In this document: positions 2,752 through 62,545 of the stretch, one piece after another | Position numbering within the stretch: position 1 is the first letter of the stretch | Layout of the letters: each line of letters begins with the position of its first letter | Origin: Eledone cirrhosa | Taxonomy: Eukaryota | Length of the DNA: 64,000 bases | Direction of reading: 5' to 3' | NCBI GenBank assembly: GCA_964016885.1 | Contig: OZ024745.1 | Coordinates: 124,000,001-124,064,000 of the forward strand | Translations under genes and position numbers: made by a program | Notes under the pieces: generated by a model | Seen by the model: only the letters and a program-made list of their open reading frames with translations | What the model was told of the DNA's origin: nothing | Databases searched by the model: none

Positions 2752-3160
2752 AATGTAGAAGGTGAGTTTTATTGTAGCACAATAAAGCAATGCAAATATC
2801 AGATAAGTACCACTCTACAGTTTGTCGGACTGGAGTATAAATAATATAAGATCAAAAGATGGTTAAAAGAGTTCCAAGTATTTTATTATGCACATTTCAA
2901 AAACAAATATCATCATGAGATGATATCTGCGTTTTCATCAGATAAAATAGGGATACATGATATGAAGGTTAAAAAAACACTTGTGAATAGTGAAGTTGAT
3001 TTAAAACTTCACTATTCACAAGTGTTTTTTTAACCTTCATATCATGTATCCCTATTTTATCTGATGAAAACGCAGATATCATCTCATGATGATATTTGTT
3101 TTTGAAATGTGCATAATAAAATACTTGGAACTCTTTTAACCATCTTTTGATCTTATATTA
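2752..3160. mobile_element. Fold-back hammerhead element (about 155-bp arms 2842-2997 / 3005-3160) between (TA)n tracts
   Basis: Near-perfect inverted repeat with a hammerhead core in each arm. Confidence 0.8.
3053..3123 (+). ncRNA. Type I minimal hammerhead ribozyme (mirror copy on - strand about 2878-2950)
   Basis: TATTTTAT-CTGATGA-16-bp stem II-GAAA-T(GTGC)A-TA-ATAAAATA; stem I fully complementary; predicted cleavage after AUA at 3115. Confidence 0.8.
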
Positions 3161-3778
3161 CATATATATATATATATATATATATATATATATATATATA
3201 TACATACATATATATATATATATATATATATATATATACATATATATGTATGTATATATATATATATATATATATATATATATATATACATATATATGTA
3301 TGTATATATATATATATATATATATATATATATATACATATATATGTATGTATATATATATATATATATATATATATATATATATATATACATATATATA
3401 TGTATGTATATATATATATATATATATATATATATATATATATATATATATAGGAATGAGTAGGACCCCGACGGCTGAGCTCAAGCCGTTTCGATGGCTA
3501 ATTCTGGACTCCTGGTTCCTTACCACATTTCCTTCGTTATATATATATATATATATATATATATATATATATATATATATATATATATATATATATATAT
3601 ACATATATATGTATGTATATATATATATATATATATATATATATATATATATATATATATATATATATATATATACATATATATGTATGTATGTATGTAT
3701 GTATGTATCTCTCTCTCTCTCTCTCTCTCTATATATATATATATATATATATATATATATATATATACATATATATAT
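3161..3778. repeat. (TA)n/(TATG)n/(TC)n compound microsatellite containing an 87-bp hammerhead-family fragment (3452-3538)
   Basis: Direct reading; the insert matches the elements at 31271 and 40552. Confidence 0.9.
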
Positions 3779-4800
3779 CGGTATGTCTGAGTTAATGAAA
3801 TTAAAGTAATTTTGCATAGACATTTAGGTCCTAGACGTATAAATGATAAATTCCAACTATATTAATGTTATTATTTAATACCTTTAGGCAAGACACAATA
3901 TTCAAGTGTTTTGCAACTATTTAAATATATCTCCAAATTCAGAATTGTTGTTTTTATTGTGAGGCCCCATGTCAGCCTTGATCAAGCAGATCTCTGATCA
4001 AAAGTATTTCAGTCATTGCCATCCTCCTTTCTTTTTGTATATCATACTACATTTTTCAATGTATCCCTTTTTCTCCTTGTGATTTGAATGATATTAGGCT
4101 GCTAATTCTAGCATCTTTTTGTGTATCAGGGATTTACATTTTCCATTATATATATATTTTTTCTTTCAAGACTATTATTTGAATGATTTTTGACTGCTAT
4201 TTTTAGTAGGTTGACCAATTGCTTAAATTACCCTTCATTGATTGAATAAATGGTATAACCCTTTAGCATTTACATTACTCTATATTTACTATCATATGTT
4301 AATGGTAAAGGCTTTACCTCGCATAATTATCTCACAAAATATCGAATCTATGAGATTTTGATATTATTTATTTTCAGAACAATACCTTAACATCAGTGTG
4401 AGTGGCTGTACAGTACTTTGGAAAATGTCTTTGTCATAGCCTTCGCATGACCTAAGACTTTTGAGCAGTTGCATGCAGAGATTTGGTGATGCCTGGGGCC
4501 AACTCACTGATTGTATGCACCTAAAACTCAAGTGTAGGACAAGTACTGAGAAATGTGATCAAGGAAGATATTTTAAGCATGAAATAAACTGTGCAAACAT
4601 AGAAAAGACATTTCATACTGCACATTAAATAATATGCAAATCTACAGGACAGATGAACAAGCATACATGTAATTTTTTAAAGTTTGTCTAGGCATAAGCA
4701 TTGAATTTCAAGTTAATAGATTTTTCAGCTTTTTTATTTGAGCAGAAAACTGGGAACAGATTTTGGATGGGTGCTGGAGAAATCTAAGTGGGTCGTGCAC

Positions 4801-5029
4801 TCAGTATCTGTGTTGAATGGAGAACATTGTATGATCCTTTGGTTGGATGCTCAAACCACCTGCCCGGATATGGATGTCCCAAACTATTGTGCCCTCTTTT
4901 GAAGGACCAAGACTTTTCTTTGAGGATAACTTTCTACTTTTCCTCCTATTAGTCTTTGAGGCTCTAAAAATAGTAGTAAACTCAGCCATTCCTCTTCTCA
5001 TTAAACCATAAAAACTGATAACGAAACAC
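4801..5029 (-). CDS. Candidate terminal coding exon of an unidentified host gene
   Basis: Non-repetitive; cctaaccatgttacag acceptor, then G|CFVISFYGLMRRGMAEF...QHRY*; phase fits the candidate exon at 18209-18330. Confidence 0.3.
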
Positions 5030-59094: not shown

Positions 59095-61080
59095 ACAGAC
59101 TACTGAGGAGACTTGTGGCTGGAGCAAAGAACCAGTCAAACAGAAGGTGACATGGTGGTGGATCAACGCCATGGATAGATCCATTAAAGAGACAGAGATT
59201 GAAAGATTGGAAAATGGGGCAGCAAAGATCAATACCAGGAAGCTAAAACTGAAACCAGACAACAGGTATATGTAGCATGGAAAGAAGCTGAAAGCAGGAG
59301 GTTGCCAATAACTTACAATATAAGTTTCAGAGATATGAGATGTTCTGCTTTTAAAGCAGTGTGTCTGTGTGGATTGGGATTTTGTTAGGGGAAAGGGTGT
59401 TCAAAATGACAATGGGCACAGCATTGCTGATCCTCAAGAAAAAAGGACTTGAAATATTACTATGAGAGCCCAAAGAAAGTGAATGAGTATAGGGAAGAGA
59501 GACTACCCCCAGTTGACTCATCAAAGGGACCAGCTATCGAAATTGACAGTTATAGCATCAAAGATGCAAACAAGAAGATGAAAAATGGTAAAGCATCTGA
59601 GAAAGTAGTAGCCAAAATAGTAACCTGTATAGTCAATCTGGTAATACGGATGGGGGCCATACCTAATGATCAGTATAGTAGTATATGCTACAAAAAGAAA
59701 GGTGATGATCTAAAAAGGAGCAGCTGCAGAGGTCTAAAACTAATGGACTAAATTATGAAAGTGATGGAAATTGTTCTATCATAACTAATTAGGGAAACTA
59801 GCAGAAAAACCACCCGAATAATATCAATATACACACTATACATGCTAGCAGAAAAACCACCCGAAGAGTGGTTTTTCTGCTAGCATGTGTAGTGTGTATA
59901 TTGATATTATACGTAAGTATATATATATATACATGTAGATTTGATACATCAAATAAAATCGTAATTGACAGTATAAACAGAAATTGAACGAAGACGTTGT
60001 TACACTGTCTTATGTAATGATACATTAAAAAGACAATATTATATATAAACTGCATTAGGAGAAAATTAGTGACAGAAAATTATTATGTTTATTTAAGTGA
60101 TCTCCACCGGAAGTGTTGACATCACACACTCTCTCTTTCTATATATATGGTAGTTGAAGGGGTGGTGGTGGTGGCAATGATATACCGGAAGTGCAACTTT
60201 GAAAAGAAGTCAATTTTAAATTATTTATTTTTACGAAATTATTTTTGTTTACGAAATTTAGTAGAAAAATTATGTAATATTCATTCATTATTGGCAGTAT
60301 CAGTAGAGGGTTGGACACCAAGCTTTGTAGCATAGTTACGTCCCTTTATGGTCTGAGTTCAAACCCCGTCGAGGTTAACTTTGCCTTCCATCCTTACAGA
60401 GTCGATAAAATAAAGTACCAGTAATGTACTGAAATAATTGCTGGTCTTGTGCCAAAAGTAGAAACAATTATTTATTCAAAGTAATCCAACTTATTTTACT
60501 AATGGGATAAAAAAAAAATAAACCGTACGCAGTCCCGCAGACCTTCCTTTATTATAGTTTAGATAGTCAAATTAGATGAGATGCAGTTGGTCTTATACCT
60601 GTGGGGAGTATTACAGATACACTCTTCTTAGCATATCAACTGCAAGAGAAGTTCTTAGCTATAAGTAAGCCTCTGTATCTAGCTTTTCTTTACTTAGAGA
60701 AGGCCTTTGACAGAGTAGCTCGATCTGTTAACTCGTGGTCCTTAAGGAAACTAAGTGTAGAATAATGTCTTGTGAAAGCAGTACAGAGGAGCTGGCAGTA
60801 TAGGAAGAATAGGAAGTAGACAACAAAAGCTTTCTCTCTATAGCTTGTGTGCAACAAATGATACTGCATAGTAATGATACATGGACAGTAAATGTTGAAG
60901 ATGTGTGAAGACTGGAGAGAAATGAAATGAATATGCTTCAATTGATGTGTCATGTTAATATGTATGAATGACAAAATATGGATGAAATGAGAGAGAAACT
61001 GGGTATAAGAGGAATCAGCTGCTGTATGTAAGCGAGAAGATATGGATATGTGATGTGCATGAATAATGATTGCTGGATGA
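59095..61080 (+). mobile_element. Old RTE LINE fragment split by a Helitron
   Basis: TEETCGW, KGPAIEID, RGLKLMD, LIRE|IVKLDEMQ and LEKAFDRV remnants. Confidence 0.75.
59798..60563 (-). mobile_element. Non-autonomous Helitron with nested SINE A
   Basis: - strand A|TCTAAACTATAATAAAG ... CTAG|T; homologous to 26692-27151; no TSD. Confidence 0.8.
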
Positions 61081-61189
61081 TATCTATCTATCTATCTTTC
61101 TATCTATCTATCTATCTATATCTATTTATTTATCTGTATATCTATCTATATTTATCTATCTATCTATCTATATTTATATATATATATCA

Positions 61190-62545
61190 AATTAAAAAAC
61201 AGAGTTCAAAACACACATTAATCCCCTATAATTTAATGAGCTCAAGGAATAGAATCTGGGCTCTTTATAAATCACCATATAGAGAAAAGTACACATAGAG
61301 ATATGTGTTTAATTATAGGGGATCAAAAACCACCAGAGTGACGAACATATAACCTATGGAAGGAATGGTGAATACAAATCAATAAAAAGAATATATTAAA
61401 GAGTACTAACCATCTGAATATAACAATACACCTGGACATGCTCAAATTAGAGCATGTTTCGCTATAAAAAGTGAAGAATCCATATTATAGATGTAGCTCA
61501 TCAGTGGGTGCCTAGCAATACGATCAACACTTCATTCATTCATCATTTCATTTTATGTCCACTTTTCCCTGCTTGCAAGGGTGGGACGGGAACTGATTCT
61601 GGCTTGATTTCTACAGTTGGATGCTCTTCCTAACACCAACCTCATTTACAGTGAGTGCTGGGTGCTTTTTTGCCGTGGCACCTCCTGGACCACTTCACAG
61701 TGGAATGATAGGGACCCCAGTCCCTATCATCTCATTTCTACAGCTAAGTAAACTGGAGCAATGTGAAATAAAGTGTCTTGCTCAAGGAAACAACACATCA
61801 CCCGGTCTGAGAATTGAACTCACAACCTTTTGATTGGAAGGCCAATGCTCTAACCACTAAGCCATGTGCCTCCAAATAAATATATCAGATAACTAAGAAA
61901 ACATGCATGGTATAGAGCAAAGACATGTGCGTTGATTTATAGCCCAGAATCTATTCCTTGAGCTCCTTAAATTATAGGGGATTAATGTGTGTAATGTGTG
62001 TTATAGGGGATTAATGTGTGTAATGTGTGTTATAGGGGATTAATGTGTGTAATGTGTGTTAAATTTTAATTTGATATTTTGGCTCCTAATTCATTTCTGT
62101 ATGTAAGTAAAGCTTCTAAAGTTGAATGGTTCTGAGCTGCTGTTTTTAGCAGTCTTTTGGTCTATTCACACCACCATGGGCTATATAACACATGTATTTC
62201 CTCTATACTATGTGTGTTTTCTTAGTTATCTGATATATTTATATGGAAGTGTTGAATGAAATGATGAATGAATGAAGTGTTGATCGTATTGCTAGGCACC
62301 CACTGATGAGCTACATCTACAATATAGATTCTTCACTTTTTATAGCGAAACATGCTCTTATTTGAGCATGTCCGAGTGATGTTGTTATAATCGGATGGTT
62401 AGTACTCTTTGATATATTCTTTTTATTGATTTGTATTCCCCATTCCTTCCGTAGGTTATATGTTCATCACTCTGGTGGTTTTTGATCCCCTATGATTGAA
62501 TACATATCTCCATGTGTACTTCGCTCTATATGGTGATTTATATAT
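61190..62545. mobile_element. Fold-back hammerhead element with nested SINE B
   Basis: 61265-61550 is inverted against 62255-62542; 61873-61945 against 62178-62248; 61210-61262 against 61940-61992. Confidence 0.8.
62297..62378 (+). ncRNA. Type I hammerhead with full 7-bp stem III (mirror copy on - strand 61429-61510)
   Basis: CACCCA-CTGATGA-GCTA...TAGC-GAAA-CATGCTC(TTATTT)GAGCATG-TC-CGAGTG; stem I partly decayed. Confidence 0.8.

Follow-up and report, generated by a model that had tools for sequence, protein, structure and literature searches.

A 64,000-nt stretch of the Eledone cirrhosa genome (assembly GCA_964016885.1, contig OZ024745.1, positions 124,000,001 to 124,064,000, forward strand; hereafter the window) contains short inserts whose families share a bulged RNA hairpin, and most of these families are linked to Hydra-clade Penelope-like retrotransposons. 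Full elements carry the hairpin twice, in the order hammerhead ribozyme, short end (A), first hairpin (hp1), long end (B), second hairpin (hp2), start codon. The landmark for the hairpins is the insertion end, not the hammerhead. Because inserts stop a few nucleotides before hp1 at one end and before hp2 at the other, the hairpins likely set the starts of copying. We infer that the reverse transcriptase (RT) binds them; the paired hairpins are probably RNA docking sites that place it at two internal starts.

The window is AT-rich and full of (TA)n runs, in a genome of 3.0 Gb. A sequence-only reading of it had listed eleven sites at which an ACTC/GAGT stem with a small asymmetric bulge follows a hammerhead in otherwise unrelated families. 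All eleven strings exist, to within 1-2 nt. The motif, RCUC-stem-loop-stem-NN-GAGY-RC, is present at ten of them, in eight families (Table 1). The exception is 62468-62503, where none of 19 family copies has GAG (11 have GAAC), the covariance model (CM) finds no match and the family ends before two other stems further 3'. One additional copy, at 30568-30588 (-), was absent from that list. A tight form of the motif has ten matches in the window, compared with a mean of 1.9 (maximum 7) in 200 Markov resamples. Genome-wide, RCTCYN{8,30}TYGAGYRCT has 144,289 exact matches, mostly copies of a few dozen families rather than independent events, and the reversed control has 4,417. An Rfam search returned no family at the gathering score and a single tRNA-like match; it also missed the hammerheads and is therefore a weak test.

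The cited sites sit in short inserts with (TA)n borders, many of them palindromic. The inverted arm ends 4-8 nt 5' of the hairpin at five window sites and probably at one more. A 5' hammerhead core is in place at four of the ten true sites (2941, 25976, 45605 and, degenerate, 53801); the remainder keep the hammerhead 3' half only or have no hammerhead left. The proposed spacing of 25-110 nt after the cleavage site narrows to 24-62 nt at the nine true sites where cleavage can be placed. Co-occurrence with hammerheads holds by family and not by copy (5' core at 10 of 70 CM hits and at 102 of 2000 random places), since most copies are 5'-truncated. Six of 32 strict hammerheads have a motif within 200 nt (none upstream, one antisense). 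This fraction is low because most of those hammerheads belong to tail-less copies, and the anchor was accordingly moved from the hammerhead, as first proposed, to the insertion ends.

The earlier picture of one hairpin per element does not hold for full elements, in which hp1 and hp2 lie 78-99 nt apart and no more than about 70 nt separates hp2 from the ATG. A second motif match is seen in locus L070. Genome-wide the twin pattern has 2,049 matches, compared with 319 when reversed and 99 when the last GAG is changed to CTC. A Hydra open reading frame (ORF) starts after hp2 in at least 13 of 20 loci drawn from the twin-pattern matches.

Insertion ends are here equated with starts of complementary DNA (cDNA), following PMC11167929; statements on published work, here and below, refer to the covered portions of the papers cited. 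Against seven reference junctions, 44 ends fall at A, 47 at B and one elsewhere, so that 91 of 92 lie within 16 nt 5' of hp1 or hp2; L245 was excluded from this count (it contains a TA run), and L233, L239 and L242 gave no twin match. With eleven references the counts are 94 at A, 89 at B and six elsewhere. The distance from end to hairpin is typically 3-8 nt, and many ends coincide with 2-4 nt that match the (TA)n target. Once TA microhomology is allowed for, ends fall most often at -8 to -5 and at -6 to -3 in family F1; in F5 the commonest interval is -7 to -4, and in F4 it is -9 to -5. Raw DNA reads of X20 enter (TA)n at the A and B positions in 8,666 and 3,354 cases, and contigs of X4 and X6 do likewise; with raw reads breaking at these positions, assembly error does not account for the ends. 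The suggestion that the motif is a reverse-transcription start signal is borne out insofar as the hairpins keep the fixed register to element ends that such a signal would.

The starts also have a short UA-rich patch, with a TAT/ATA peak at -8 to -6 (11 of 24 at -7). This peak, together with the nearness of hp2 to the ATG, would fit hairpins with a role in translating, stabilising or exporting the cleaved RNA, the ends being set only by target-pairing UA patches. AU-rich leaders hold many unused UA patches, yet nearly all ends fall at the two hairpins, and an ORF-less family (below) retains both stems; this account is very unlikely.

The two ends are coupled. Both ends could be classed in 49 two-ended inverted inserts; 48 of these are A+B, one is A+A and none is B+B, where independence would give 50% A+B. 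Two further inserts have one unclassed end. With the window left out, 41 of 42 are A+B, and six of seven families are A+B throughout. A B+B example, L008, is found among the BLAST-selected loci. The register would also fit hairpins that direct an RNase cut just upstream, with the RT copying LINE-like from true RNA 3' ends (LINE, long interspersed element), and lizard RNA-seq reads do end at start sites (PMC11167929). Two separately cut RNAs predict A+A or B+B half the time, however, and a longer 3' end left the lizard start in place (PMC11167929), which makes this route quite unlikely.

The hairpin is a second conserved RNA motif, as had been supposed, and its inner pairs covary in the alignments, strongly for hp1 and more weakly for hp2. 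In one test, a 2-nt bulge on the 3' side is the only register that pairs above shuffles (first two inner pairs in 29/41 and 28/41), which gives the asymmetric bulge its exact form. That test classed some hp1 as hp2 and merged related families, so the tests on 24 family representatives and on the RT tree are cleaner. Among the representatives, 94.9% of cells are paired compared with 78.7% in shuffles, and 35 double changes compare with 12.7; none of 500 shuffles reaches these values, and slid controls give 17-50%. The ACTC/GAGT stem is conserved overall, except that its pair 1 varies (A-U in 13 and G-C in 10 of the 24). On the RT tree, hp1 is paired in 47 of 52 cells. The CM has 103 matches in 1 Mb (training loci included), and 63 of 70 matches lie in element-end context, compared with 334 of 2000 random places. 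It has 28 matches in 200 kb of held-out DNA and one in 40 viral control loci. Single-sequence folding is weak: the full outer stem is the minimum-free-energy structure at six of 11 sites, with z from -2.6 to +0.6. Loose-pattern matches in a tRNA-derived short interspersed element (SINE), in RTE/LINE bodies and in a 48-nt satellite were rejected as chance; 135 non-end clusters show no inner pairing in the bulge-register test. The SINE (L086, L094, L174, L186) carries ACTCAG...TGAGTAC, a symmetric look-alike that has neither bulge nor end register.

Among the variable pairs, G-U occurs eight times and A-C twice, and the sense strand is therefore favoured. This bears on an alternative in which the hairpins act in DNA, where the endonuclease (EN) would recognise them in a longer transposition intermediate and trim at a fixed distance. 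A nuclease is also compatible with the fixed register; the tail has been ascribed to EN-mediated resolution (PMC8557442), and the Drosophila virilis tail is needed for EN recognition of DNA, as cited in PMC11167929. The excess of G-U (G-T in DNA) speaks against the first cDNA strand, covariation and loops of 8-45 nt speak against recognition of a duplex, and the lizard enzyme starts internally in vitro (PMC11167929). Trimming of DNA is thus unlikely.

Six of the eight cited families are linked to Hydra-clade RT genes, and the families are to that extent related, contrary to the earlier description. Family F5 is tied to hp2 and a Hydra ORF in L231 and L239, F4 in L234 and L235, and F6 in L233 and L248; hp2 and an ORF are found for F7 in L288, and an ORF start follows in L184 for F2. 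Long copies of the family at 40711 (F1) lead to an autonomous element; F3 and F9 have no shown ORF link. The order of the F1 element is hammerhead, hairpin, ORF, 1.2-kb 3' region, hammerhead, hairpin, (TA)n. In L250 it forms a 3.54-kb tandem unit with an intact, stop-free RT-EN ORF of 719 aa. This single ORF encodes RWR, DKT, CNCPDRSIC (CxCx5C), CNLC (CxxC) and CKH (CxH), with a YIG motif near the C-terminus, and CCHH is absent as judged by eye. RWR, DKT and CxCx5C occur in 105, 109 and 107 of 110 homologues, respectively, and at least 2,018 relatives are recorded. The protein has no match in the Pfam copy searched or in PDB when searched by sequence. Its predicted structure (pLDDT, the predicted local distance difference test, of 92.6) has telomerase reverse transcriptases as its best fold matches. 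RWK/R, DKT, CxCx5C, CxxC and CxH are Hydra-clade marks in section 11 of PMC8557442. The inserts show (TA)n targets, an inverted arm and an optional tail, all Hydra-clade features. The predicted hammerhead is canonical and lies on the sense strand in the pseudo-long terminal repeat (pLTR), with a U3:A8 core variant in F1 and F9. Judged on the ORF, its motifs, the hammerhead and the (TA)n targets, L250 and the linked elements are Hydra-clade Penelope-like elements.

The hammerhead cores of F1 and F9 are TTGAGAA and TTGAAAA (L012-L021, L250; L267-L277). In hammerhead numbering these are a U3:A8 swap of the usual C3:G8 pair, and standard patterns miss them. A Neptune-type family with a 796-aa frame (L002/L061; L061-L066) was rejected as a motif partner: its ends show no motif, and the CM matches in L061-L066 look like neighbouring inserts or are weak. 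It has a CX2-5CxxC linker and a CCHH endonuclease. This family is young, its RT-EN frame overlaps a frame of up to 455 codons that precedes it, and the family has 34,472 first-look candidates in the genome.

The RT tree is made up of loci of this analysis, and its lineages are 35-55% identical to one another. Common ancestry of the families could produce likeness by passive homology or coding constraint, with no function. Flanks and loops are unalignable while nine positions are nearly invariant across these lineages and across phyla; the motif precedes the ATG, and the loop carries an in-frame stop in one F1 subfamily. Such an origin is highly unlikely.

The docking reading can be extended to programmed twin priming, in which a Hydra RT-EN dimer occupies hp1 and hp2 of a single RNA, cleaves both (TA)n strands and uses a telomerase-like alignment of 2-4 nt. 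We hold this tentatively, at somewhat less than an even chance. In the docking reading itself, the GIY-YIG domain would cut both strands of (TA)n, and the UA patch 5' of a hairpin would offer each DNA 3' end a pairing of 2-4 nt. Extension would begin at B for one DNA end and at A for the other, probably with two RT subunits sharing a single RNA. Joining the two cDNAs head to head would give an inverted repeat with a tail (hp1 and spacer) on one side only; hp2, uncopied at end B, would act there as a signal only. The role of the hammerhead would be to split tandem transcripts into units, not to set the ends. A precedent is Poseidon PAc, whose RT starts internally at two tail-bounding sites and extends both strands; it requires RNA 3' of the start but no hammerhead cleavage (PMC11167929).

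The motif is seen by eye in four of six published Hydra consensi (File S7 of PMC8557442), from coral, sea cucumber and copepod: Hydra-2_Amil, Hydra-2_Ajap, Hydra-1_Ajap (twice, 5' of the ATG) and Hydra-1_Crog (one imperfect copy and one with GCCC/GGGC). Both hairpins are also present in a metagenome contig, L193, whose relatives L194 and L195 break off immediately 5' of hp2. These two relatives have an extra ACTC...GAGCAC stem about 25 nt past the break point after the 3' copy, perhaps a second inserted element. Among viral contigs, 80 loci match the pattern; none has a Penelope-like ORF and no relative was found.

Several observations weigh against the docking reading or its extension. Three of the four outer pairs and the RC never vary, and therefore give no structural evidence. 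On the RT tree, hp1 has only about 1-3 independent double changes per pair, and the inner stem of hp2 is loose (pair 5 in 8/13, pair 7 in 5/13). The representatives are related and were picked with the outer pattern, which inflates the shuffle tests. Of 189 ends, 87 are unpaired and fall outside the coupling test, and very short A+A palindromes could be missed. No stem is seen by eye in the Hydra-1_Obim and Hydra-1_Amil consensi, both of which may be tail-less. Two ends with other tails are found in palindromic families 1, 3, 9, 12, 16 and 26 and in the hammerhead family at 41285; Penelope-like elements therefore do not all share the motif. The lizard PAc RNA, from the letters of a figure extract (PMC11167929), has no motif, and the lizard enzyme showed no primer-template homology. 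In the Fig. S1B extract of that paper, with letter order unchecked, the lizard RNA contains GGCCA...GCC...GAC as two repeats spaced by 41 nt, roughly the length of one tail. These repeats are a lead that Poseidon may use a twin motif of its own.

A motif-blind sample comprised 120 evenly spaced 10-kb stretches (1.2 Mb) and the window, from which inverted arms with a one-sided tail were collected. It gave 121 tailed inverted arms in 56 clusters, many of them low-complexity noise. In 11 of the 56 clusters ACTC/GAGT or GCTC/GAGC stands at the tail start, about 3-15 nt from the arm end, and four of the 11 have the compensatory GCTC/GAGC form. Tailed-arm family 15 has a variant stem, TCTC...GAGCAA, at its tail start at 30811-30838 (+).

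The family of site 62468 is an ORF-less tandem unit with a terminal repeat and a hammerhead but no Hydra ORF. It keeps two variant stems, and its insertion ends fall 5' of those stems (Table 1). A second ORF-less tandem unit, of about 330-345 nt, lies at 40800-41435 and has a type I hammerhead (41285-41316) and two fixed ends. Its tail motif differs and is ATGCTTGAAG-like, as in palindromic families 9, 16 and 26; the unit has 2,633 candidates genome-wide. By their make-up (ORF-less tandem units with a hammerhead), 61188-62538 and 40800-41435 are candidate retrozymes. The palindromic inserts at 26230-26400 and in families 1, 3 and 12 have one-sided tails without the motif; family 3 adjoins Penelope-like ORF ends of uncertain clade.

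Table 1. Hairpins, related stems and insert parts in the window (positions of the window; strand in brackets).
Feature	Position	Associated features
hp1, family F5	2810..2836 (-)	hammerhead core 2941; cleavage 2887; long end 2753; inverted arm end near 3160
Insert of 85 nt, family F1	3453..3537	short end left, long end right; hairpin itself lost
hp1, family F1	16634..16659 (+)	no hammerhead left; long end 16706
Inverted arm, family F4	from about 25761	second hammerhead 25851-25813 (-)
hp1, family F4	26076..26105 (+)	hammerhead 25976-26014; long end 26166
hp1, family F2	30568..30588 (-)	one substitution
hp1, family F1	31318..31343 (-)	palindromic insert ~31272-31473; hammerhead 3' half; cleavage 31369
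hp1, family F1	40711..40736 (+)	palindromic insert ~40553-40782; cleavage 40685; autonomous partner L250
Tail-less arm, family F3	42050..42149 (-)	whole hammerhead 42149-42103; short-end partner of long end 45325
hp1, family F3	45241..45262 (+)	long end 45325
hp1, family F2	45519..45539 (-)	hammerhead core 45605 (GAAA changed); cleavage 45567; long end 45477
hp1, family F9	45760..45787 (-)	hammerhead 3' half; cleavage 45812; other copies with U3:A8 core
hp1 with long loop, family F6	53609..53660 (-)	degenerate core 53801; cleavage 53723; long end 53565
hp1, family F7	53881..53928 (-)	cleavage 53959; long end 53845; palindromic insert; pair 1 an A-C mismatch (G-C in many other copies)
Variant end-marking stem, 1-nt bulge (first of ORF-less family)	61240..61261 (-)	long end 61188
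Variant stem as at 61240	61942..61963 (+)	start of ORF-less tandem unit, ~520 nt
Second end-marking stem, ORF-less family	62082..62115 (+)	GAGC changed to AAGC here; intact in L263, L264
Non-motif stem at cited site 62468	62462..62503 (+)	best register GUUC at 62462; hammerhead 62303-62372; short end 62538

Other repeats surround these inserts. A perfect 330-nt inverted repeat lies at 24863-25738. Its left arm copies the sequence that flanks 25760 on the left, which places the F4 insert next to a local inverted duplication. Broken ORFs of non-LTR retrotransposons (RT, endonuclease) lie at 34036-35370 (+), 42859-44346, 57156-57836 (-), 8093-8587 (-) and 14690-15268 (+), the second of them inside the F3 insert 42050-45325. 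Tandem arrays at 1288-1743, 13380-14420, 10304-11050 and 19780-20793 have periods of 48, 61, 29 and about 23 nt, and the 48-mer recurs inside a dispersed repeat.

RNAs that position an RT are familiar from the 3' stem-loops of LINEs and SINEs, from hepadnaviral epsilon and from the telomerase RNA elements beside the template. In such systems a structured RNA binds the RT and fixes the start of copying, and telomerase uses a short primer alignment. Twin priming of L1 yields 5' inversions and its second priming site is not known to be fixed, whereas here two hairpins stand in series and both priming sites are fixed.

The elements agree with the published Hydra clade (PMC8557442) in the C-terminal GIY-YIG domain and the RT motifs, the sense type I hammerhead, the (TA)n targets, the pLTR, the inverted 5'-truncated arm and the one-sided tail. 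They differ in the second RNA motif, which is not described in sections 6 and 11 and File S2 of that paper, and in size: published tails are 30-40 nt, and here tails are about 60-100 nt and the F1 unit is 3.54 kb. Poseidon PAc (PMC11167929) is alike in its two tail-bounding starts, priming on both strands, need for 3' RNA and modelled dimer. In the covered text it is a single family with no conserved motif, and its start lies in an AC-rich stem-loop with no primer homology; here the starts precede a pair of conserved hairpins, often with a UA match of 2-4 nt, and A and B are coupled. Non-LTR retrozymes (PMC7229834; bioRxiv 10.64898/2026.07.22.740005) are likewise ORF-less tandem units with a type I hammerhead and have been proposed to be moved by Penelope-like RTs. 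No cis signal is named for them in the covered text, whereas the 520-nt family has two end-marking stems.

Neither the motif nor a count of A+B coupling was found in the literature covered, including PMC11167929, PMC8557442, PMC7229834, PMC4209133, PMC3846280 and bioRxiv 10.64898/2026.07.22.740005. Hydra elements, the one-sided tail, the two starts and retrozymes are already known, and the twin hairpin motif is apparently undescribed.

Penelope-like RTs are the closest relatives of telomerase, and their choice of template and their one-sided tails are open questions. The motif recurs across phyla in fixed register to both ends, with near-strict A+B coupling, and this leads to mutational tests with the 719-aa L250 enzyme. 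With about 140,000 exact matches in this genome, it can also serve as an annotation marker, both for Hydra elements and for their ORF-less passengers. If twin priming is true, one geometry would explain both the one-sided tail and the head-to-head arms of Penelope-like elements. It would also show how retrozymes borrow an RT, with a portable 100-nt module making any RNA a template, and other clades may then use other twin motifs.

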